A stretch of DNA of 64,000 nucleotides from Escherichia coli (GTDB lineage: Bacteria > Pseudomonadota > Gammaproteobacteria > Enterobacterales > Enterobacteriaceae). Numbering within the stretch: the stretch's first letter is position 1; each line of letters starts with the position of its first letter. The notes under the pieces are model-generated. The model was not told the origin of the DNA. It ran no database searches and worked only from the letters and a program-made list of their open reading frames with translations. Below are positions 11,847-23,999 of this stretch, piece by piece. The stretch is taken from assembly GCF_050320075.1 (NCBI RefSeq), contig NZ_CP190018.1; one strand, given 5' to 3'. The position numbers and the translations under genes were made by a program.

Positions 11847-13325
11847 TTACGCATTCGACCAGCTCTGGATCGAATCCGCATTCCCCAATTCCCCATGCAT
11901 CACTTCATACGATTTTTTCAGGATTACATCAGTATGTTTGGTTAACTCCTTGAAAATGCCTTTATTCATCGCGTTGTAGCGTTTGGCGTTGCTCTCAACA
12001 GGCATAAAGATATCTTTCACGCGAACCATTTTGTCGACAGCCGTTGCGTAATCCGGGTATAGCCCCAGACCTACCGCCGTATTAATCGCTGCCCCCAGGC
12101 TTGCACAACCATTAATGGCGTTACGGCGTGCCGGAAGGTTGAACACGTCGGCAAAAATCTGCATAAACAGATCGCTGTTCGAACCGCCGCCAGTAATGAT
12201 CACATGCTTTGCAAAGTGATTCATTTCATTACACATATTGTCGTAATTGTTCTTCAGCGTCAGCGCCACGCTTTCCAGTATCGAACGATATATCCATGCG
12301 TAATCCATGCTGGAATCAAAGCCAATCATAATCCCGCGTTTGTACGGTTCCCACGGATTGGTCAGCCAGTCCAGCACCGTCATCAGACCATTACAGCCTG
12401 GCGGCACACAAGACGCTTTTTTGTTGAGCAAATCTTCCGGTGAAAGATCCTGTGCTTTGGCATCCTGAATTAACGACTCGCCTAACATGTCGCGTAGCCA
12501 GCTCACCGTCCACATGCCTTTGCGAATACCGTAACCTTCATACAGCAAGGTTTGCGGAATAGAAGACATAATCGGCCAGTACGCTACCGGATCTTTCGGT
12601 AGTAATTTGCCGTTCATCATCAACGCGATGTAAGTGCCAAGAGAAATTACCGCAGTTTCATCATCCAGTAACCCGGCTCCCAGTGCTTCTACCGGTTTAT
12701 CACTGGTGGTACAAACAACCGGCAGCCCAGCCGGGAAATGTGTCGCCAGCGCGGCTTGAGGAGTGATATGCCCAAGAACAGTGCCCGGCATTTGCACATC
12801 AAACAGCATATGACGGGGGATATTAAACTTCTCCATGACTGCGGCATCTTCACTCCATGCCCAGGTCTTATAATCCACCGGCCACTGACCAAAATAGTTG
12901 GCGATATTGTCTTTAAACTCGCCGGTTAAGCGATGCGTCAGATAACCCGAAAAAGAGGTGACATATGCCACGTCAGGATTCGTATGTTCGTAAGGGCGTG
13001 TAACGCGTGCATCCTGCCAGCTAATCAACGGCGCAGCTGGCGTGCCATCGGCTTTCAATAACGCACGGCAGCAACGGATGGATCCCAGACCAATACCGAC
13101 AATATCTTCTTTATTTCCGGCAAACTGACTCATCAAATCGTGACCGGCAAAGCATAATGATGCCCATAAATCGTCGTCAGGATGTTCTGCGGTATCGGCA
13201 TCTGGCGTGTGCATCGGCTGCAATAAGCCTTTGCCTTCGCAAACCACATTACCTTCCAGATCGTACATCACCACTTTTGTGCTCTGACTTCCACCATCAA
13301 TCCCTATGATGTATTTTTTCGACAT
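11847..13325 (-). CDS. ygcE: FGGY-family carbohydrate kinase
   Basis: 492-aa ORF MSKKYIIGIDGGSQSTKVVMYDLEG...; FGGY kinase N- and C-domain signatures. Confidence 0.85.
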   Translation of the reverse strand: MSKKYIIGIDGGSQSTKVVMYDLEGNVVCEGKGLLQPMHTPDADTAEHPDDDLWASLCFAGHDLMSQFAGNKEDIVGIGLGSIRCCRALLKADGTPAAPLISWQDARVTRPYEHTNPDVAYVTSFSGYLTHRLTGEFKDNIANYFGQWPVDYKTWAWSEDAAVMEKFNIPRHMLFDVQMPGTVLGHITPQAALATHFPAGLPVVCTTSDKPVEALGAGLLDDETAVISLGTYIALMMNGKLLPKDPVAYWPIMSSIPQTLLYEGYGIRKGMWTVSWLRDMLGESLIQDAKAQDLSPEDLLNKKASCVPPGCNGLMTVLDWLTNPWEPYKRGIMIGFDSSMDYAWIYRSILESVALTLKNNYDNMCNEMNHFAKHVIITGGGSNSDLFMQIFADVFNLPARRNAINGCASLGAAINTAVGLGLYPDYATAVDKMVRVKDIFMPVESNAKRYNAMNKGIFKELTKHTDVILKKSYEVMHGELGNADSIQSWSNA

Positions 13326-13351
13326 GATTTTTCTCCTGTAATTTTCTGGAC

Positions 13352-14629
13352 TTACTTGCTGCTAGCCATAGCAGGGGCGCTATCAGCAGTACGAATTTTT
13401 TGGAACAGCAAAAAGGTAAAGACGATCACCATGGCAAGCGCCGCCATGCCCATCAGCCACATATTGCGGTAGGCTTCTGCAGCGGGCAGGGTGTCTTGCC
13501 AGTAGCCGATAATCGGGTAAACGAAGACATCCGGCAGGAATCCAATCACCGAACAAATACCTACCGTGGTGCCCATAATGTAAGACGGTGTTCTCGCTTC
13601 GCCAGGGCAGGCCCAGTACAGCCCGCGTGAGGCGTAACAGGTGAATCCCAGCAGTAAAATCAGGCCAATCCCCATCGCGACCGATTGCGGGTTAGAGTTC
13701 GTGACGAGCAGGGCAGTTAACGCCAGCAAGCCGAGTACGGAAAGGATTTGGATCACGCGGGTAGGGGATTTCACTTTGCTGTAGGTGGTGATAATGCCGC
13801 CAAGTGGGCCGCACAGCGCGCGGAAGATTTTGTTGATCACAATCCCCATGTAGCTCGCCGCCACCAGCGACATGCCGTACATTTCGGTCAGATAGTTGGT
13901 GGAGTAACTCAGAATGGCGTAGATGGTGAAGACGCCAAAAATCACCATGCTGCAATACCAGGTGGTGCTGATGCGCAAAACGGCCAGGATGTCGCTAAGC
14001 TGGAATGACTGTTTTTCTTCGTTATTGGCACTGCGCAGATTGTTGTTATCGCTAACAAAAAACCAGCACAGAATCCCCAACAAGATGTAAACCACACTAT
14101 AGATGATGATGACCGTTTTCAGACTGGCGCTGTCATCCGGAGCGAAGCGAGAAAAGACCCACATGGTAAACACCGCCAGCGACATTACACCGACGCCGCG
14201 CAGCCCTTCCATCCAGCCCATAATTTTCCCTTGCTCGCTATGATCGCCCAGCAATGAGGCGGCTTTAATCGACACCGACCACAGCATTAAAATAGTGGTT
14301 ATCGCAAAGGCGACCTGAATACAGAGCATTACCCACAGCGGTGGATATGTTGCCATTAACAGACCCAGTAATCCGGTAATGATCATCGCGGAAGTAATCA
14401 TTTTGCGGTGTGAAAATTTATCGGCAATAACGCCGCTGGGGGCATAAAGAATAATGGCCGCAATACCAAATGTACTCATTATTAAACCTATCTCGGTATT
14501 GCTGAATCCCATAAATTTCGCTATGGGAATTTGATAAATATAACGTAAATAAGCCAGGTCGAAACTAACGCCGCCGCTAAAACTAATTATCGCGAGGGTT
14601 ATCCAACGGCGATATGAGTTGTGTTGCAT
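13352..14629 (-). CDS. yqcE: MFS transporter
   Basis: 425-aa highly hydrophobic ORF with about 12 predicted transmembrane segments; immediately upstream of ygcE on the same strand. Confidence 0.8.
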   Translation of the reverse strand: MQHNSYRRWITLAIISFSGGVSFDLAYLRYIYQIPIAKFMGFSNTEIGLIMSTFGIAAIILYAPSGVIADKFSHRKMITSAMIITGLLGLLMATYPPLWVMLCIQVAFAITTILMLWSVSIKAASLLGDHSEQGKIMGWMEGLRGVGVMSLAVFTMWVFSRFAPDDSASLKTVIIIYSVVYILLGILCWFFVSDNNNLRSANNEEKQSFQLSDILAVLRISTTWYCSMVIFGVFTIYAILSYSTNYLTEMYGMSLVAASYMGIVINKIFRALCGPLGGIITTYSKVKSPTRVIQILSVLGLLALTALLVTNSNPQSVAMGIGLILLLGFTCYASRGLYWACPGEARTPSYIMGTTVGICSVIGFLPDVFVYPIIGYWQDTLPAAEAYRNMWLMGMAALAMVIVFTFLLFQKIRTADSAPAMASSK

Positions 14630-14652
14630 ATCGTATTCCCATTTGTAATAGA

Positions 14653-14700
14653 CAAAAAAAAGAGAAAAGTAAGCCGCCCTTTCAGGTGGATTACTTTTCT
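14653..14700 (-). terminator. intrinsic terminator/attenuator in the 5' leader of yqcE (minus-strand transcript)
   Basis: perfect 11-bp stem gagaaaagtaa / ttacttttctc with 18-nt loop, followed on the minus strand by 8 U, then about 23 nt to the yqcE start codon. Confidence 0.65.
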
Positions 14701-14807
14701 CAGGTCTCTAGTAATTGCAATAAGAAATAACATGGAAAGCAGTGGTGTTGTGTGAGAGTAATCACGCTTCTGCTTTTTAAAATTATTTGACAATTCGAAT
14801 ATCACAC

Positions 14808-14823
14808 TGTGATTACGATCACA
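14808..14823. promoter_or_regulatory. candidate CRP binding site TGTGA-ttacga-TCACA in the divergent yqcE/ygcW control region
   Basis: perfect match to both half-sites of the CRP consensus TGTGA-N6-TCACA. Confidence 0.55.
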
Positions 14824-14876
14824 TTAGCGATTATGCCCTTATGATAAAAATTATCTCCAGTTACCAGAGATAATGA

Positions 14877-14923
14877 GAAAGGTAACTTCCCTCTCGCGGG
14901 GGAAGTTACCTTTCTTTTTTTTT
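14877..14923 (+). terminator. intrinsic terminator/attenuator in the 5' leader of ygcW (plus-strand transcript)
   Basis: perfect 14-bp stem gaaaggtaacttcc / ggaagttacctttc with 10-nt loop, followed by 9 T, then 24 nt to the ygcW start codon. Confidence 0.7.
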
Positions 14924-14947
14924 GCCTTACGGAAATTGGAGCTAACT

Positions 14948-15733
14948 ATGTCAATCGAATCTCTCAATGCGTTCTCAATGGATTTTTTCTCCCTGAAAGG
15001 TAAAACCGCAATTGTTACCGGCGGGAATAGCGGTTTAGGCCAGGCATTTGCCATGGCGCTGGCCAAAGCAGGCGCAAATATCTTTATTCCAAGCTTCGTT
15101 AAAGATAACGGCGAAACAAAGGAAATGATTGAAAAACAGGGTGTTGAGGTGGACTTCATGCAGGTGGATATCACCGCAGAAGGCGCGCCGCAGAAGATAA
15201 TCGCCGCCTGTTGCGAACGTTTCGGTACCGTCGATATTCTGATTAACAATGCCGGTATTTGTAAGCTGAATAAGGTGCTGAACTTCGGTCGTGCCGACTG
15301 GGACCCGATGATTGATGTGAACCTGACCGCCGCATTCGAGTTAAGCTATGAAGCTGCAAAAATTATGATCCCGCAGAAAAGCGGTAAAATCATTAATATC
15401 TGTTCATTATTCTCTTACTTAGGTGGACAATGGTCACCTGCATATTCTGCCACTAAACATGCTCTTGCCGGATTCACCAAAGCTTACTGTGATGAACTAG
15501 GTCAATATAATATTCAGGTAAATGGTATTGCCCCTGGCTATTATGCAACAGATATTACGCTGGCGACACGCAGTAATCCAGAAACCAATCAGCGCGTTCT
15601 TGATCATATTCCGGCAAACCGTTGGGGCGATACTCAGGATTTAATGGGCGCAGCCGTATTCCTCGCAAGTCCGGCATCGAATTATGTCAACGGACATTTA
15701 TTAGTGGTTGATGGTGGTTATTTAGTGCGCTAA
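14948..15733 (+). CDS. ygcW: short-chain dehydrogenase/reductase (KduD/FabG-like); start placed after the leader terminator
   Basis: TGGNSGLGQAF Rossmann motif and S...Y..K catalytic signature (YSATKHAL); the ORF-track start at 14873 would run through the terminator hairpin. Confidence 0.85.
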   Translation: MSIESLNAFSMDFFSLKGKTAIVTGGNSGLGQAFAMALAKAGANIFIPSFVKDNGETKEMIEKQGVEVDFMQVDITAEGAPQKIIAACCERFGTVDILINNAGICKLNKVLNFGRADWDPMIDVNLTAAFELSYEAAKIMIPQKSGKIINICSLFSYLGGQWSPAYSATKHALAGFTKAYCDELGQYNIQVNGIAPGYYATDITLATRSNPETNQRVLDHIPANRWGDTQDLMGAAVFLASPASNYVNGHLLVVDGGYLVR

Positions 15734-15802
15734 TCCATAACGGTGGTTTCTGTTTTCTCTTATTAATGATTATTCCATTTTTATTATCAGGAAGGAATTA
15801 CT

Positions 15803-17257
15803 ATGTCTTTATCTCGCGCAGCGATTGTCGACCAGCTAAAGGAAATTGTTGGTGCAGATCGCGTAATTACCGATGAAACAGTATTAAAGAAGAACAGTAT
15901 TGACCGTTTTCGCAAATTTCCGGATATTCATGGCATTTATACTTTGCCGATTCCGGCAGCGGTCGTAAAACTCGGTTCCACAGAACAAGTATCCCGTGTG
16001 CTGAATTTTATGAATGCGCACAAAATTAACGGTGTGCCGCGTACCGGTGCTTCCGCTACCGAAGGTGGGCTGGAAACCGTTGTGGAAAACTCGGTGGTGC
16101 TCGACGGCTCTGCCATGAATCAAATCATTAATATTGATATTGAGAATATGCAGGCCACGGCGCAATGCGGAGTTCCGCTGGAAGTGCTGGAAAACGCGTT
16201 GCGTGAAAAAGGTTACACCACGGGGCATTCTCCGCAGTCAAAGCCGCTGGCGCAGATGGGCGGCCTGGTAGCAACCCGCAGTATCGGGCAGTTCTCCACA
16301 CTCTACGGCGCAATCGAAGATATGGTCGTTGGTCTGGAAGCAGTATTGGCTGATGGCACCGTAACACGCATTAAAAACGTACCACGCCGCGCGGCAGGCC
16401 CGGACATTCGTCACATCATCATCGGCAACGAAGGTGCATTGTGCTATATCACTGAAGTAACTGTGAAAATCTTTAAGTTCACCCCGGAAAACAACCTCTT
16501 CTACGGCTATATCCTGGAAGACATGAAAACCGGCTTCAACATCCTGCGTGAAATCATGGTGGAAGGGTATCGTCCGTCGATCGCTCGTTTGTATGACGCT
16601 GAAGATGGCACCCAACACTTCACCCATTTTGCTGACGGAAAATGCGTGCTGATCTTTATGGCTGAAGGTAACCCTCGCATTGCGAAGGCGACGGGCGAAG
16701 GGATTGCTGAAATCGTGGCACGTTACCCGCAATGCCAGCGAGTGGACAGCAAGCTGATCGAAACCTGGTTTAACAACCTGAACTGGGGACCGGATAAAGT
16801 AGCTGCCGAACGTGTGCAGATCCTCAAAACCGGCAACATGGGCTTTACCACCGAAGTGTCCGGCTGCTGGAGCTGCATTCACGAAATCTACGAAAGCGTT
16901 ATTAACCGTATTCGTACCGAGTTCCCGCACGCCGACGACATCACCATGCTGGGCGGTCACTCCTCTCACAGCTACCAGAACGGCACCAACATGTACTTCG
17001 TTTACGACTACAACGTTGTTGACTGTAAGCCGGAAGAGGAAATCGACAAGTACCACAATCCGCTCAACAAAATCATCTGCGAAGAAACCATTCGCCTCGG
17101 TGGTTCGATGGTGCACCACCACGGCATTGGTAAACATCGCGTTCACTGGAGCAAGCTGGAACACGGCAGCGCGTGGACGTTGCTGGAAGGTCTGAAAAAG
17201 CAGTTCGATCCTAACGGCATTATGAATACGGGTACTATCTATCCGATTGAAAAATAA
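15803..17257 (+). CDS. ygcU: FAD-linked oxidoreductase (GlcD / alkyl-DHAP synthase-like)
   Basis: 484-aa ORF with FAD-binding PCMH-type domain. Confidence 0.8.
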   Translation: MSLSRAAIVDQLKEIVGADRVITDETVLKKNSIDRFRKFPDIHGIYTLPIPAAVVKLGSTEQVSRVLNFMNAHKINGVPRTGASATEGGLETVVENSVVLDGSAMNQIINIDIENMQATAQCGVPLEVLENALREKGYTTGHSPQSKPLAQMGGLVATRSIGQFSTLYGAIEDMVVGLEAVLADGTVTRIKNVPRRAAGPDIRHIIIGNEGALCYITEVTVKIFKFTPENNLFYGYILEDMKTGFNILREIMVEGYRPSIARLYDAEDGTQHFTHFADGKCVLIFMAEGNPRIAKATGEGIAEIVARYPQCQRVDSKLIETWFNNLNWGPDKVAAERVQILKTGNMGFTTEVSGCWSCIHEIYESVINRIRTEFPHADDITMLGGHSSHSYQNGTNMYFVYDYNVVDCKPEEEIDKYHNPLNKIICEETIRLGGSMVHHHGIGKHRVHWSKLEHGSAWTLLEGLKKQFDPNGIMNTGTIYPIEK

Positions 17258-17350
17258 TGTGTCAGGCAGCGTTCCGCGATGACGGGGCGTTGCCTTTTCG
17301 GCTTCTCAGGCGAGAAGCCGTTCTTATTACCGGACAATGAAGGGATAAAG

Positions 17351-18688
17351 ATGAACACTTCACCGGTGCGAATGGATGATTTACCACTTAACCGTTTTCA
17401 CTGCCGCATTGCTGCGCTCACTTTCGGCGCACACCTGACCGACGGTTATGTCCTCGGCGTCATTGGTTACGCCATTATTCAGCTTACGCCCGCCATGCAA
17501 CTGACGCCGTTTATGGCGGGAATGATTGGCGGCTCAGCACTCCTTGGTTTGTTTCTTGGCAGCCTGGTTCTGGGCTGGATCTCCGACCATATTGGGCGAC
17601 AAAAAATCTTCACCTTCAGCTTTTTGCTGATTACGCTTGCTTCGTTTTTACAATTTTTTGCCACCACGCCAGAGCATCTTATTGGACTGCGCATTTTGAT
17701 TGGCATTGGTCTGGGAGGCGATTACTCAGTCGGTCACACCTTGCTGGCTGAATTTTCCCCGCGCCGCCACCGCGGTATTTTGCTGGGCGCGTTCAGCGTG
17801 GTGTGGACTGTAGGCTATGTGCTGGCAAGTATTGCCGGACATCACTTTATTAGCGAAAGCCCGGAGGCCTGGCGCTGGCTGCTGGCATCGGCAGCTCTGC
17901 CCGCATTGTTGATTACGTTATTACGCTGGGGAACGCCAGAATCGCCACGCTGGCTACTGCGCCAGGGGCGTTTTGCAGAAGCTCACGCTATCGTGCATCG
18001 CTATTTTGGTCCCCATGTTTTACTGGGCGATGAAGTGGCAACGGCGACCCATAAACACATCAAAACCTTGTTCTCTTCGCGCTACTGGCGGCGCACAGCG
18101 TTTAACAGCGTCTTCTTTGTCTGCCTCGTAATCCCATGGTTTGTGATTTATACCTGGCTGCCAACTATCGCCCAGACTATTGGTCTGGAAGATGCGTTGA
18201 CCGCTAGCCTGATGCTTAATGCGTTGTTAATTGTGGGTGCGCTGCTGGGATTAGTTCTGACGCACCTGCTGGCACATCGCAAATTTTTGCTGGGAAGTTT
18301 TTTGCTGCTGGCGGCAACGCTGGTAGTGATGGCTTGTTTGCCTTCCGGCAGTTCATTAACGCTGCTGCTTTTTGTTCTCTTCAGCACCACCATTTCGGCA
18401 GTCAGTAATCTGGTGGGCATTTTGCCTGCGGAAAGTTTTCCTACTGACATTCGCTCGCTGGGCGTCGGTTTTGCCACCGCCATGAGTCGGTTGGGCGCGG
18501 CGGTAAGTACTGGCCTGCTGCCGTGGGTGCTGGCGCAGTGGGGAATGCAAGTCACCTTATTGCTCCTGGCGGCAGTGTTGTTGGTTGGTTTTGTCGTGAC
18601 CTGGCTATGGGCACCAGAAACCAAAGCACTCCCGCTGGTGGCGGCGGGAAATGTTGGAGGTGCGAATGAACATTCTGTTAGCGTTTAA
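17351..18688 (+). CDS. ygcS: MFS sugar-type transporter; start taken at internal MNTSPVRMDD
   Basis: hydrophobic 12-TM ORF; sugar-transporter-like GR[RK] motifs. Confidence 0.75.
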   Translation: MNTSPVRMDDLPLNRFHCRIAALTFGAHLTDGYVLGVIGYAIIQLTPAMQLTPFMAGMIGGSALLGLFLGSLVLGWISDHIGRQKIFTFSFLLITLASFLQFFATTPEHLIGLRILIGIGLGGDYSVGHTLLAEFSPRRHRGILLGAFSVVWTVGYVLASIAGHHFISESPEAWRWLLASAALPALLITLLRWGTPESPRWLLRQGRFAEAHAIVHRYFGPHVLLGDEVATATHKHIKTLFSSRYWRRTAFNSVFFVCLVIPWFVIYTWLPTIAQTIGLEDALTASLMLNALLIVGALLGLVLTHLLAHRKFLLGSFLLLAATLVVMACLPSGSSLTLLLFVLFSTTISAVSNLVGILPAESFPTDIRSLGVGFATAMSRLGAAVSTGLLPWVLAQWGMQVTLLLLAAVLLVGFVVTWLWAPETKALPLVAAGNVGGANEHSVSV

Positions 18689-19445
18689 AGCCGAACCGGA
18701 TGCCGGAATGCTGGCGGAAAAAGAGTGGCAGGCGGCGGCTCAGGGTAATAGCGGACCGGATGTTTCGCTTCTGCGAAGTTTGCTCGGTGCTGATGAACAG
18801 GCTGCCGCCGCGCTGCTGTTGGCGCAGAGAAAAAACGGTACGTCGATGTCTTTAACCGCGTTGAGCATGGGGGATGAACGGGCGTTGCACTGGCTGCGCT
18901 ATCTTATGGCTCTTGGGTTTGAGGAAGCTGTATTGCTGGAGACGGCGGCAGATCTGCGCTTTGCGCCGGAATTTGTCGCTCGCCATATTGCCGAATGGCA
19001 GTACCAGAATCCGCTGGAGCTGATAATTACTGGCTGCCAAAGCAGCGAAGGGCAGAATGGGCAAACGCCATTTTTGCTGGCGGAAATGCTGGGCTGGCCC
19101 TGCTTCACCCAGGTGGAGCGTTTTACTCTCGACGCGCCGTTTATCACCCTTGAACAGCGTACTGAAAACGGGCTGCGCTGTTGCCGGGTTCGCTTGCCTG
19201 CGGTGATTGCCGTGCGTCAGTGCGGTGAAGTGGCCTTGCCAGTACCGGGAATGCGTCAGCGAATGGCGGTGGGGAAAGCAGCAATTATCCGTAAAACTGT
19301 TGCTGCCGAATCGCCAGCGATGCAGTGTCTGCAACTGGCAAGAGCAGAGCAACAACGCGGAGCGACGCTGATTGATGGGCAAACGGTAGCAGAAAAAGCG
19401 CAAAAGCTATGGCAGGACTATTTACGCCAAAGGATGCAGCCATGA
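18666..19445 (+). CDS. ygcR: electron transfer flavoprotein beta-subunit-like protein (FixA-like)
   Basis: ORF 18651..19445, likely start MNILLAFKAEPD; ETF-beta fold-like sequence; directly precedes an ETF-alpha-like gene. Confidence 0.7.
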   Translation: MNILLAFKAEPDAGMLAEKEWQAAAQGNSGPDVSLLRSLLGADEQAAAALLLAQRKNGTSMSLTALSMGDERALHWLRYLMALGFEEAVLLETAADLRFAPEFVARHIAEWQYQNPLELIITGCQSSEGQNGQTPFLLAEMLGWPCFTQVERFTLDAPFITLEQRTENGLRCCRVRLPAVIAVRQCGEVALPVPGMRQRMAVGKAAIIRKTVAAESPAMQCLQLARAEQQRGATLIDGQTVAEKAQKLWQDYLRQRMQP

Positions 19446-20302
19446 ATATCGCAATTGTGACAATAAATCAGGAGAATGCCGCAACAGCGAGCTGGCAGGC
19501 GGCGCAGGATTTCAGCGGTTGTACCCTGGCGCACTGGAAGATTGAACCTCAGCCCGCTGTGGCGGAACAGGTGCTGGATGCGCTGGTGGAACAGTGGCAG
19601 CGAACGCCAGCGGACGTTGTTCTCTTTCCGCCGGGAACGTTTGGCGATGAACTGTCGACCCGGCTGGCCTGGCGTTTACATGGTGCAAGCATCTGCCAGG
19701 TGACTTCGTTAGATATTCCAACCGTAAGCGTGCGCAAATCCCACTGGGGAAATGCGCTAACGGCGACGCTGCAAACAGAAAAACGCCCGCTATGCCTTTC
19801 GCTGGCACGTCAGGCGGGAGCAGATAAAAACGCCACGTTGCCCTCTGGTATGCAGCAACTGAACATTGTCCCAGGTGCGCTTCCCGACTGGCTGGTTAGC
19901 ATAGAAAACCTGAAAAATGTTACCCGCGACCCATTAGCTGAGGCCAGACGGGTGCTGGTGGTGGGGCAGGGCGGAGAGGCAGATAACCAGGAAATCGCTA
20001 TGCTGGCAGAAAAGCTGGGAGCCGAAGTGGGCTACAGTCGGGCACGAGTGATGAACGGTGGCGTTGATGCCGAAAAAGTGATTGGTATTTCTGGACATCT
20101 GCTGGCACCTGAGGTGTGTATTGTTGTTGGCGCTTCCGGCGCAGCAGCGTTAATGGCGGGCGTACGCAATAGCAAGTTTGTGGTGGCGATTAATCATGAC
20201 GCCAGCGCAGCGGTATTTTCACAGGCAGATGTTGGCGTGGTTGATGACTGGAAAGTGGTGCTGGAGGCACTGGTGACAAACATTCACGCAGAATGCCAAT
20301 AA
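19442..20302 (+). CDS. ygcQ: electron transfer flavoprotein alpha-subunit-like protein (FixB-like)
   Basis: ORF 19409..20302, likely start MNIAIVTINQ; C-terminal FAD-binding ETF-alpha-like region. Confidence 0.7.
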   Translation: MNIAIVTINQENAATASWQAAQDFSGCTLAHWKIEPQPAVAEQVLDALVEQWQRTPADVVLFPPGTFGDELSTRLAWRLHGASICQVTSLDIPTVSVRKSHWGNALTATLQTEKRPLCLSLARQAGADKNATLPSGMQQLNIVPGALPDWLVSIENLKNVTRDPLAEARRVLVVGQGGEADNQEIAMLAEKLGAEVGYSRARVMNGGVDAEKVIGISGHLLAPEVCIVVGASGAAALMAGVRNSKFVVAINHDASAAVFSQADVGVVDDWKVVLEALVTNIHAECQ

Positions 20303-20350
20303 CGTGCAGCCGGATGATCCTGCCTACGGTTTCGGGCTGGGGACTTGTAA

Positions 20351-21124
<774 letters not shown>

Positions 21125-21228
21125 ATCAGCATACTTGTCCTTAGCCTTCTGCAGTGACAGCTGGTAGTACAGCGTGCTTCTGGCCAGCCCTGCAGCCTTT
21201 AACAGGTCAGACTGGCAGTGTCCGCACC

Positions 21229-21759
21229 TCAGGCTCCGGATGACTTTCGTTTTTTCTCCAGCTCCTGGCGCTTTTTTTCCAGGAGATGCTCCTGCATGGC
21301 TTTCAGATATGCATTTTCTGCGCGAAGATAACGTAGCTCATTCTTCATCTCTTCCGGCGTCATGTTTGCCTCGTTTTCATGGGTATCATCAGAACGGGTC
21401 ATGCTTTTCTCCTTCCTGCGCCTGATAAAGGCCTCATTACCAGATTTGCGGTAGCCTTTTATCCAGTTTTTAACCGTGTTGTGGCTGGGAATGTTAAACC
21501 GGGCAGCTACCCGGGGTAGAGACTCAGAATGCCCGAGAGCATAAAGAACCACGCAAAGTTTATCTTCAGGAGAATAGCTACGCTTGTGTCTGCAATCCAG
21601 TGCCCGAGGACCGTGAAGAAGAAAAAGATTAATCCAGTGTGAGAGGCTGGTGTGAGAAAGTTGAAAGAGTTTTGCCGTAGAAATGATGCCTGCATGACCA
21701 GCCAGGTAATGATTTACAGCGGCAAGTTTTACTTCAAATGAATGTTTCATAAACTGCAC
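21229..21759 (-). CDS. IS3-family transposase orfA (HTH plus leucine-zipper region)
   Basis: 176-aa ORF; A AAA AAG frameshift motif at about 21271..21279 (minus-strand ctggaaaaaaagcg) near its 3' end. Confidence 0.85.
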   Translation of the reverse strand: MQFMKHSFEVKLAAVNHYLAGHAGIISTAKLFQLSHTSLSHWINLFLLHGPRALDCRHKRSYSPEDKLCVVLYALGHSESLPRVAARFNIPSHNTVKNWIKGYRKSGNEAFIRRRKEKSMTRSDDTHENEANMTPEEMKNELRYLRAENAYLKAMQEHLLEKKRQELEKKRKSSGA

Positions 21760-21884
21760 CTTCAGATGTCAGATTATGTCCAACATTTGGGGTGCAGTTC
21801 ATCAAGCGTCGCATCAGGCGCTGAATGTCGGATGTGGCGTGCAGCCTACAAATCACACAAATTCAACTCGTTACGAGTATCCCG

Positions 21885-22460
21885 TCAAAGCAATTTTTTC
21901 GCTAACGTCCAGACCCCGGTATTCGTGGTGGAAAGCGCCACAACACCCGCGTTAATCGCATTACGCGCATCTTCTTCATCGCACACCAGCCCGCCGGCAA
22001 TCAGCGGTTGGCGGATTTTCTCCGTCACCCAGCCCAGCACTTTAGGCATACAGCCTGGCAGGATCTCAATACAATCCGGATTCGATTGCGCAACTTGCTT
22101 ATCAATGTTGTGAAACGAAATCGAATCAACAATAAACAGGCGATGAATACAGAAAAAACCTTCCGCTCTTGCCGCTTTCAGCATCGATGCTTTCGTGCTG
22201 ATAATGCCGTCCGCCTCGGTCACCAGTTTCAGAAACTGAATCACCACTTCTTTGTTCGATGCGCCTTCCAGCAAATCAACATGAATAAAGGCATATTTTC
22301 CGGCGTTTTTAATCTTTTTAACGATATTACTGATGGTGCAGATATTGCCGTACAACACTGAAATAAACTGGCATTCAGAATCGATTGCCAGTTGCAGGCT
22401 GGCATTATCTTTAACGGCAGCAATCACCGGATTCTGGCGGAGCAGGTGTAAGAGGGGCAT
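21885..22460 (-). CDS. ygcP: GlpP-family (glycerol-3-phosphate-responsive antiterminator-like) regulator
   Basis: 191-aa ORF; family assignment recalled from the K-12 ygcP annotation, not verified by alignment here. Confidence 0.7.
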   Translation of the reverse strand: MPLLHLLRQNPVIAAVKDNASLQLAIDSECQFISVLYGNICTISNIVKKIKNAGKYAFIHVDLLEGASNKEVVIQFLKLVTEADGIISTKASMLKAARAEGFFCIHRLFIVDSISFHNIDKQVAQSNPDCIEILPGCMPKVLGWVTEKIRQPLIAGGLVCDEEDARNAINAGVVALSTTNTGVWTLAKKLL

Positions 22461-22476
22461 AAATTATCCTTATTAT

Positions 22477-22773
22477 TTATCCAAAGCGGTAGGTGATGCC
22501 GAATCCGGAAGGCGGATAGCGCCACTGTTGTAGTGTTGATTCGTCGCACAGCAAACGGCAGGTGCCACACTCCAGGCAGCCGCGATAATCAACGCGTAAG
22601 TCACCTTCCGGTGTGAGCGAAAAAAGACCAGCCGGACAAGCGTTAATCAACCGTTGTACCGTCTGGCGCTCAACGGAGTCAGCCGGAACAATGTGCGGCG
22701 CATCGGCAACGCGCCAGAGATTACGGGCTACAGACATCGCAGACTCCTGATAACATCGCCCGCCAGATGCCAC
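22477..22773 (-). CDS. ygcO: ferredoxin-like protein (FixX-like)
   Basis: 98-aa ORF with Cys-rich motif (CLECGTCRLLC); overlaps the ygcN stop. Confidence 0.7.
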   Translation of the reverse strand: MASGGRCYQESAMSVARNLWRVADAPHIVPADSVERQTVQRLINACPAGLFSLTPEGDLRVDYRGCLECGTCRLLCDESTLQQWRYPPSGFGITYRFG

Positions 22774-23999
22774 AGGCCGTGACGACGTAAATGACGCCAG
22801 AATAACTGGCGCAGCGGTGGAACAGGTTTATCACCCTGATCCCATAAATCGCGGGAAATATCCTGCATTAACGCAGGCCACGCACGGTACCAGCCAGGGC
22901 GTTGCAAAAGCGCCGGAACATGCTGATAACGTTGTAGAACATCCCATAGCAGGCTGCGCTCGACGTTGTGATGATAAAGCGGAAACAGATTTTGCGGCTC
23001 GCGGTGCTGGCAGGCGCTTATCAGCGTTTGTGCCGCCGCCTGCGCGCCAGTTAGCGCCATATCCATGCCGCGCACGGAAATTCCGGTATTGACGCAACTG
23101 CGCAACGCATCGCCCAGCAGCAGCCAGCCGTTACCGGCGTATTGCACCGGCATACTGTGCAAGCCACCTTCTGGCACCAGATGCGCACCATACTCCAGTG
23201 ATTCCGTGTTTTTGATAAGCGGGCGCACTGCCGGATGCGTTTTAAAGCGAGCCAGCAGCTCGCTTGCCGGAACACGACTTTGCGTAAGGGAAGAGAGCGG
23301 GCAAACAATCCCTAACGAGAGCGTTTGTTGATTAGTATAAAGAAATGCGCCGCCGGGTAAGTCATCACAGATCCCGCCGCTGAACAGCAACGCTGCGTCT
23401 TCGTTATTCTCCAGATGAAAACGTTCTTCAATAGCGGATGTTTCCAGCGACAGCACTTCTTTGATCCCCAACGCCATCGCTTCGCCAGCAGGACGAGTCA
23501 CTAACCCGTGACGTTCAGCCAGGACGCTGTTGGCACCTTCTGCCAGCACCACATAACGGGCGCGGAGAATATCGTCACCACAAATGACACCACACACCCT
23601 GCCGTTTTCTTCATACAGCGCATCCACCGTCGCACCGGGGATGCATTCGACACCTTCTTTTTCGGCTTCGGCAACCAGCCACGGATCGAACCGTGCACGT
23701 AATACACTCCAGGATTCACCGCCGGGCTGTAAGCTGGAAAACGTCGTTGCGCCATCCGGCGTTAGCAGAGAAAGGCTTTCGTGAGTGATGCGTCGTTCAA
23801 GAGGCGCGGTCAGATGAAATTGCGGGAGGAGTTCCGCGAGCGCATGGGTGTATAAACGCCCGCCGGAAAGATTTTTGCTGCCGGGGATTTCAGCGCGTTC
23901 CAGTAACAGAACGGACAAACCTGCCCGCGCGCAGCGTAAAGCACAAGCGGTACCTGCTATACCGGCACCAATAATAATAATGTCGCAGTTGTCTTCCAT
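22728..23999 (-). CDS. ygcN: FAD-dependent oxidoreductase (FixC / ETF-QO-like); start taken at MEDNCDIIIIGAG
   Basis: GxGxxG dinucleotide-binding motif at the N-terminus (IIIIGAGIAGTACA). Confidence 0.8.
   Translation of the reverse strand: MEDNCDIIIIGAGIAGTACALRCARAGLSVLLLERAEIPGSKNLSGGRLYTHALAELLPQFHLTAPLERRITHESLSLLTPDGATTFSSLQPGGESWSVLRARFDPWLVAEAEKEGVECIPGATVDALYEENGRVCGVICGDDILRARYVVLAEGANSVLAERHGLVTRPAGEAMALGIKEVLSLETSAIEERFHLENNEDAALLFSGGICDDLPGGAFLYTNQQTLSLGIVCPLSSLTQSRVPASELLARFKTHPAVRPLIKNTESLEYGAHLVPEGGLHSMPVQYAGNGWLLLGDALRSCVNTGISVRGMDMALTGAQAAAQTLISACQHREPQNLFPLYHHNVERSLLWDVLQRYQHVPALLQRPGWYRAWPALMQDISRDLWDQGDKPVPPLRQLFWRHLRRHGLWHLAGDVIRSLRCL

Follow-up and report, generated by a model that had tools for sequence, protein, structure and literature searches.

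Does the short spacer between ygcU and ygcS of Escherichia coli carry an RNA signal that affects expression of the genes beyond it, and if so, of what kind? The spacer lies in a window of 64,000 nucleotides (the whole stretch of DNA that was analyzed), in which the ygc cluster is arranged as ygcE and yqcE on the minus strand, followed by ygcW, ygcU, ygcS, ygcR, and ygcQ on the plus strand. According to RefSeq, the products of the plus-strand genes are an SDR oxidoreductase (ygcW), an FAD-binding oxidoreductase (ygcU), an MFS transporter (ygcS), and the beta and alpha subunits of an electron-transfer flavoprotein (ETF; ygcR and ygcQ, respectively, both downstream of ygcS). The product of ygcP is annotated as a glycerol-3-phosphate-responsive antiterminator. 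An earlier note on this DNA had pointed to a hairpin with a weak U tract in the spacer. Two hairpins, here called hairpin 1 and hairpin 2, were found at the junction (Table 1), and the one described in the earlier note is hairpin 2.

The ygcU-ygcS junction and the start of ygcS

A 601-nt piece around the hairpin was 100% identical to the sequence of E. coli strain 7/2 and 96.5% identical to that of K-12, and the same piece was found in 5,093 of 5,426 complete E. coli genomes. The spacer was nearly invariant within the species (at least 95% identity over the spacer in 5,061 of 5,092 genomes), and the single-nucleotide polymorphisms among the sampled E. coli strains were located in hairpin 1, not in hairpin 2.

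Table 1. Features of the ygcU-ygcS junction, with positions in the 64,000-nt window
Feature	Position	Strand	Remarks
ygcU stop codon (TAA)	17255..17257	+	ORF 15803-17257, annotated as ygcU in RefSeq
Hairpin 1: GGCAGCGUUCCG / CGAUGA loop / CGGGGCGUUGCC	17265..17294	+	12 pairs, including 3 G·U; Escherichia only
RefSeq/PGAP ygcS start codon (ATG)	17279..17281	+	469-aa product; lies within the hairpin 1 loop; probably not the true start
TTTT run between hairpins 1 and 2	17295..17298	+	Read from the sequence
Hairpin 2: CGGCUUCUC-AGGC-GAGAAGCCG	17299..17320	+	9 perfect pairs; -14.9 kcal/mol, z = -4.5; conserved with compensatory changes
Interrupted U-rich tail, TTCTTATTA	17321..17329	+	Of its first 8 nt, 6 are T
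Shine-Dalgarno region of ygcS, GAAGGGA	17339..17345	+	K-12 and its relatives have GAAGGGG; conserved before the ATG at 17351 in 32 orthologues
Conserved ygcS start codon	17351..17353	+	445-aa product; ATG and Shine-Dalgarno region invariant in the alignment

The RefSeq start of ygcS (17279) puts both hairpins under coding sequence in thousands of genomes. If that start were used, the palindrome would be incidental, a by-product of the N-terminal coding sequence of a 469-aa YgcS. The reading frame from 17279 is open and its ATG was invariant in nine Escherichia sequences, both of which are in keeping with such a protein. However, this ATG has no preceding Shine-Dalgarno sequence and sits in a hairpin loop, whereas the ATG at 17351, together with its GAAGGG(G/A) Shine-Dalgarno sequence, was kept in 32 of 32 alignable orthologues. 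An upstream in-frame start codon was absent in 18 of the 26 non-Escherichia loci, an in-frame stop lay only three codons upstream of ygcS in 5 of the 26, and the 24-codon extension (17279-17350) was confined to Escherichia. Within Escherichia, the changes in the extension were nonsynonymous (SGEK to STGK) yet preserved base pairing; a conserved start combined with amino acid constraint, as expected of coding sequence, was not found for the extension. PGAP itself calls the 445-aa form of YgcS where an IS200C element interrupts the spacer. The comparative data thus favor the ATG at 17351, the start at 17279 is probably wrong, and a coding origin of the palindrome is highly improbable.

Because the comparative data contradict the start at 17279, we regard both hairpins as intergenic. 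The earlier note had placed hairpin 2 between the ygcU stop codon and the ATG at 17351, and our data agree; the RefSeq start differs. The practical result is a correction of the annotation: the RefSeq start of ygcS probably adds 24 untranslated residues to the protein in thousands of E. coli genomes, and the extended annotation hides two RNA hairpins inside a coding sequence.

Hairpin 2 is a conserved plus-strand RNA structure with a T-rich tail

The arms of hairpin 2, CGGCTTCTC (17299-17307) and GAGAAGCCG (17312-17320), are separated by the 4-nt loop AGGC, and the inverted repeat is exactly the one described in the earlier note. All nine pairs are Watson-Crick pairs and six of them are G-C. 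None of 200 dinucleotide shuffles of the 22-mer RNA folded as well. The window was also scanned with a strict pattern that required nine or more perfect pairs, five or more of them G-C, a loop of 3 to 8 nt, and five or more T among the 8 nt that follow the stem. This pattern occurred at six places on both strands, one of them hairpin 2. In 100 dinucleotide shuffles, the same pattern was expected 0.13 +/- 0.46 times per shuffled 64-kb window, and the likelihood of a chance match within the 93-nt spacer is therefore about 1e-4. These results confirmed that hairpin 2 is real and that chance does not explain it.

Hairpin 2 lies 41 nt after the ygcU stop codon and 30 nt before the conserved ygcS start. 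It has the G+C-rich stem-loop of an intrinsic terminator (about 5 to 14 bp with a loop of 3 to 8 nt, on the transcribed strand) and the location of one, downstream of a stop codon and outside coding sequence. Its tail on the plus strand, TTCTTATT (17321-17328), has 6 T in 8 nt; in the RNA (UUCUUAUU), the 6 U in 8 are interrupted at positions 3 and 6, against a U tract of about 7 to 9 nt in a full terminator. The minus strand has no T run after the stem and reads AAAAGG. No sigma-70-like site was predicted on the plus strand between position 15928 and ygcS. A search of positions 13000 to 23000 with the Rfam 15 covariance models (E <= 1) gave no relevant match to a known RNA family; the only hit was a chance-level rliE match in the ygcW leader region.

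Hairpin 1, which had been missed in the earlier note, is the stronger of the two structures (-20.2 kcal/mol, z = -4.95). It was present only in the 93-nt spacers of Escherichia and was absent from the 52- to 62-nt spacers of other genera. Since it stands directly upstream of hairpin 2, the 93-nt spacer is almost filled by tandem hairpins, and the 106-nt region holding both had a z score of -4.3.

A genome scan with YgcS gave 46 loci, 43 of which had intact ygcW-ygcU-ygcS synteny. In these 43 Enterobacterales loci, every ygcU-ygcS spacer contained a hairpin with an energy of -12 kcal/mol or lower (median, -21.4 kcal/mol). The ygcW-ygcU spacers, which are of similar length and served as an internal control, reached -12 kcal/mol in only 4 of 43 cases (median, -6.0 kcal/mol). 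A homologous hairpin, with the form GGCTTCYC-N3-6-GRGAAGCC or derivatives of it, was found in the genera that could be aligned, namely, Escherichia, Citrobacter, Klebsiella, Raoultella, Enterobacter, Superficieibacter, Yokenella, Pluralibacter, Mixta, Entomohabitans, Cedecea, and Buttiauxella (32 alignable orthologues in total). In Serratia, Rahnella, Limnobaculum, Budvicia, Enterobacillus, and two MAGs, an unrelated G+C-rich hairpin occurred 6 to 21 nt after the ygcU stop codon. The stem started 5 to 14 nt after that codon in about 30 of the 43 loci, and in most species only 20 to 30 nt separated the hairpin from the ygcS start.

The pairing itself was conserved among the 32 orthologues, each of which folded individually (-8.2 to -20.6 kcal/mol), and the loop sequence varied. 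In their alignment, 90% of the cells were paired, compared with 47 to 64% when the 3' partner was slid by 1 to 3 columns. Changes on both sides were seen in five of the nine stem pairs, and 0 of 500 shuffles reached the covariation score, a control that overstates the significance because the sequences are related. The 26 distinct in-register rows contained 208 Watson-Crick pairs, 22 G·U pairs, 3 A·C mismatches, and 1 A·G mismatch. The large excess of G·U over A·C indicates that the constraint acts on RNA of the plus strand, rather than on a DNA palindrome or on RNA of the minus strand. RNAalifold returned no consensus structure for the model-fitted alignment (A5) because five rows, all from the RIT693/Cedecea/Buttiauxella clade, were 1 to 2 nt out of register; the covariance model left the same five rows out of register. 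Explicit pair counts, made despite these five rows, and per-sequence folds were therefore used in place of RNAalifold.

The tail was more variable than the stem. The 8 nt after the stem held a mean of 5.4 T (range, 3 to 7) in the 32 orthologues. Terminator strength was ranked with the d'Aubenton-Carafa discriminant (d), computed with the modern energies of ViennaRNA, so that only the relative ranking of the values is meaningful. On this relative scale, hairpin 2 (d = +2.0) and hairpin 1 with its TTTT run (d = +7.7) were both borderline and the ygcW leader terminator scored +56, while the orthologous junction hairpins ranged from -44 to +44. The U tract of hairpin 2 is thus weak, as the earlier note had said. 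Canonical tails were found in Citrobacter sedlakii (TTTTTTT, d = +44), Pluralibacter (TTTTTT, d = +34), and Limnobaculum (TTTTTGT, d = +38). The tails of Enterobacter sp. 10-1 (CCTTTACC) and Citrobacter amalonaticus (CAATTTTA) were poor and Rahnella had none. As the hairpin was kept in each of these, selection may act on the hairpin as such and not on termination.

Candidate roles of the junction hairpin

The most economical reading of hairpin 2 is a partial terminator inside the operon, as the earlier note had proposed, because a structure was present in 43 of 43 loci, the tail is T rich, and there is neither room nor a predicted site for a promoter before ygcS. Stated more broadly, we hold it somewhat probable that hairpin 2, with the U-rich tail, works as a leaky intrinsic terminator, as a hairpin that protects 3' ends, or as both. 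Termination, its leakiness, and a stabilizing effect are properties that we infer from the sequence features described above. Hairpin 2 would act as an RNA structure on the sense (plus-strand) ygcW-ygcU-ygcS-ygcR-ygcQ transcript, in the untranslated spacer that follows ygcU. Once RNA polymerase has passed the ygcU stop codon, the nascent RNA would fold into the 9-bp G+C-rich stem while the polymerase is on UUCUUAUU; a fraction of the complexes would terminate, and the remainder would read through into ygcS, ygcR, and ygcQ. Given the lack of a predicted promoter and the spacing of 20 to 30 nt, these three genes would have to be transcribed by read-through. Transcripts that end at hairpin 2, by termination or by 3' trimming, would be shielded from 3'-to-5' exonucleases. 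Both effects would raise ygcW and ygcU relative to the transporter and ETF genes; as they work in the same direction, sequence by itself cannot separate termination from protection. In Escherichia, a 33-nt insertion adds hairpin 1 and its UUUU run upstream, giving tandem weak terminator-like hairpins.

The ratio that could be set in this way is not the one suggested by the earlier note, which had the hairpin modulating the balance of transporter to ETF. The transporter gene ygcS and the ETF genes ygcR and ygcQ all lie downstream of the hairpin, which could therefore only set the level of ygcW and ygcU against that of ygcS, ygcR, and ygcQ. If this is true, an uncharacterized enteric catabolic operon makes less of its membrane transporter and ETF than of its two soluble dehydrogenases. 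The junction hairpin would also offer a phylogenetically graded natural series, from weak to canonical U tracts on one conserved stem, for the study of terminator strength. Current concepts are unchanged by it, since hairpin 2 is most likely an uncharacterized instance of a well-known type of element.

Leaky terminators or attenuators inside E. coli operons include the rplL-rpoB attenuator and the T1 terminator of rpsU-dnaG. The junction hairpin resembles both in having a G+C-rich stem-loop and a U-rich tail on the sense strand of a co-directional spacer with no downstream promoter; the distal genes would likewise depend on read-through, and a step-down in expression would be expected. It differs from them in its interrupted U tract and borderline score, in being a terminator by sequence only, and in belonging to an uncharacterized operon. 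Intercistronic stabilizing hairpins, such as the REP element between malE and malF, provide a second comparison. Like that element, hairpin 2 is a stable hairpin directly after an upstream cistron, which it could protect from 3' exonucleases to give unequal amounts of products; unlike it, hairpin 2 lies in a single-copy spacer and carries a T-rich tail, which stabilizers do not need.

This last difference bears on the possibility that hairpin 2 is purely an element of RNA stability or processing, without appreciable termination. Such an element would block 3'-to-5' exonucleases after endonucleolytic cleavage or after downstream Rho-dependent termination, or, in a processed ygcSRQ RNA, would serve as a cap at the 5' end. 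REP hairpins are known to create differential stability of operon segments in malEFG, and the persistence of a hairpin in 43 of 43 loci, set against a U tract that varies widely, is poor in several genera, and is weak in E. coli, is what this explanation would lead one to expect. However, a pure exonuclease barrier needs no U tract, whereas the tail was T rich in all 32 alignable orthologues (at least 3 T in 8, with the mean given above) and canonical in several genera. We therefore regard a role in stability to the exclusion of termination as unlikely, although it deserves consideration; the two roles are compatible. Intergenic palindromes in E. coli often belong to REP elements, and ERIC-like repeats did insert into the ygcU-ygcS spacer in other genera, so that hairpin 2 might in principle derive from a dispersed repeat of the REP/BIME, ERIC, or a similar type, either as a copy or as a remnant, or might be a palindromic DNA operator bound by a transcription factor. 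Against a repeat, the 93-nt spacer was single copy, with a median of one place per genome in 5,092 E. coli genomes even at E <= 10, the covariance model found no second match in the 64-kb window, and no Rfam family matched; against an operator, the asymmetry between G·U and A·C favors RNA over a DNA palindrome. Either origin is scarcely credible.

The ygcW leader and the ygcU stop codon

In the leader of ygcW, on the plus strand, a small hairpin (14850-14874) precedes a terminator (14877-14923) made up of a 17-bp hairpin and a T9 run. The hairpin of this terminator (14877-14914) has 17 pairs and a folding energy of -27.6 kcal/mol. Its sequence, the 5' arm (GARAARGTRACTTCYC) and the 5' flank included, hardly varied among the 43 loci, as expected for an element that is specifically recognized, and the GlpP-like antiterminator YgcP probably targets it. 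In published Term-seq tables, a 3' end that coincides with the terminator was mapped 38 nt upstream of ygcW; it was supported by about 40,600 reads and had an intrinsic score of 15.8 (Adams et al. 2021, PMC7815308). Since the only 3' end recorded was in the ygcW leader, the operon was largely off (leader attenuated) in those cultures. Neither ygcU nor ygcS has a 3' end in the same tables; with transcription ending in the leader of ygcW under those conditions, this result has low power (Adams et al. 2021, PMC7815308). The SMRT-Cappable-seq supplements make no mention of the ygc operon genes, and the literature on the ygc genes yielded nothing on the ygcU-ygcS junction.

Hairpin 2 might then be a second target of YgcP, with regulated read-through, and the earlier note had raised the idea of another antitermination target. 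The cluster does encode a protein resembling glycerol-3-phosphate-responsive antiterminators, it has a strong ygcW leader terminator at which a 3' end was detected by Term-seq, and the apical stems of the leader and junction hairpins both contain CUUCYC/GRGAAG (CUUCCC/GGGAAG in the leader). The junction hairpin also shares the transcript and strand of the leader terminator. Unlike that terminator, with its 17 pairs, T9 run, and invariance, it is short, has a weak tail, and shows sequence turnover: its sequence changes in the RIT693/Cedecea clade and in Buttiauxella while the leader stays invariant, and in Serratia, Rahnella, Limnobaculum, and Budvicia, unrelated hairpins stand in its place. 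Its loop sequence is not conserved, no alternative antiterminator fold competing with hairpin 2 was found, and it carries neither the conserved sequence of the leader nor an alternative structure. The idea of a second antitermination target thus found no support, and we consider it very doubtful. The earlier note saw no sequence similarity between the junction hairpin and the leader hairpins, and in essence this is correct.

Shared recognition of the two elements was considered on the basis of the common CUUCYC/GRGAAG segment and rejected, since the segment does not covary between them.

The position of the stem relative to the ygcU stop codon raises another possibility. The tR2 terminator was almost fully repressed by a terminating ribosome when placed 5 to 14 nt from the stop codon, and this repression vanished, with full efficiency restored, beyond about 30 nt (Li et al. 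2016, PMC4824070). The junction stem resembles such ribosome-masked terminators in the roughly 30 of 43 orthologues in which it starts at 5 to 14 nt. E. coli differs, as hairpin 2 is at +41 nt, past the limit of about 30 nt, and hairpin 1 is at +7. By analogy, the junction hairpin could be a translation-gated checkpoint that is masked by the ribosome finishing ygcU and that Escherichia has rewired to a constitutive hairpin 2. A ribosome at the ygcU stop codon would mask the ancestral stem and allow read-through, and polymerases without a following ribosome would terminate without reaching the genes for the membrane transporter and the ETF. In Escherichia, hairpin 1 would have taken the masked position, and hairpin 2, pushed to 41 nt, would act constitutively. 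We regard this scheme as rather improbable, and a leaky terminator and/or protective hairpin as the better candidate for hairpin 2.

Several insertions were seen at the junction. In Klebsiella spallanzanii, about 125 nt are inserted between the ygcU stop codon and the conserved hairpin (locus L007, positions 2816-2945). This insert is a dispersed repeat, of which E. coli genomes contain a median of seven full-length copies each (about 84% identity), all of them in DNA that carries no annotation, and we take it to resemble ERIC/IRU elements. The spacer itself was rejected as a REP, BIME, or ERIC repeat, since it is single copy in E. coli; the Klebsiella insert, by contrast, occurs at a median of seven places per genome. 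The spacers of Raoultella, Enterobacter sp. 10-1, and Citrobacter koseri (short form) (loci L010, L037, and L047) appear to contain similar insertions; a short-word BLAST comparison between the long spacers of different genera gave no cross-matches. Two Serratia spacers of 240 to 256 nt (L031 and L033) hold two inverted copies of a CCCTCTCC...GGAGAGGG hairpin motif, which looks like another small repeat element inserted at the ygcU-ygcS junction. In the K. spallanzanii spacer and in those with similar insertions (L010, L037, and L047), the block of hairpin, Shine-Dalgarno sequence, and ATG was always intact. In E. coli CFSAN018748, an IS200C element is inserted directly after the TTCTTATT tail (window position 17328/17329; locus L049, positions 1569-2279), that is, between hairpin 2 and the ygcS ribosome-binding site, and separates ygcS from the upstream transcript.

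The region immediately before ygcS contains other minor features. The ygcS 5' untranslated region (TTACCGGACAATGAAGGGGTA) is unusually conserved throughout the Escherichia-Citrobacter-Klebsiella clade. A possible stem at 17328-17368 on the plus strand (UACCGG/CCGGUG plus UGAAG/CUUCA) would enclose part of the ygcS Shine-Dalgarno sequence and the AUG. Its folding energy (-11.4 kcal/mol, z = -2.65) is marginal, and covariation was not available as support for it. The stem was present only in the Escherichia-Citrobacter-Klebsiella clade; Pluralibacter and the RIT693 clade lack it. A three-codon mini-ORF, ATG AAG GGA TAA (17337-17348, plus strand), overlaps the ygcS Shine-Dalgarno sequence and ends 2 nt before the ygcS ATG. 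It reads ATG AAG GGG TAA/TAG in relatives and is probably incidental because it is deleted in C. amalonaticus and Citrobacter braakii. Farther downstream, the window carries a 1,432-bp insertion relative to K-12 (20370-21801) between the convergent ends of ygcQ and ygcP. The annotation of strain 7/2, which is near-identical, describes it as a transposase of the IS3-like element IS1397 with a programmed frameshift; IS1397 targets REP/palindromic units.
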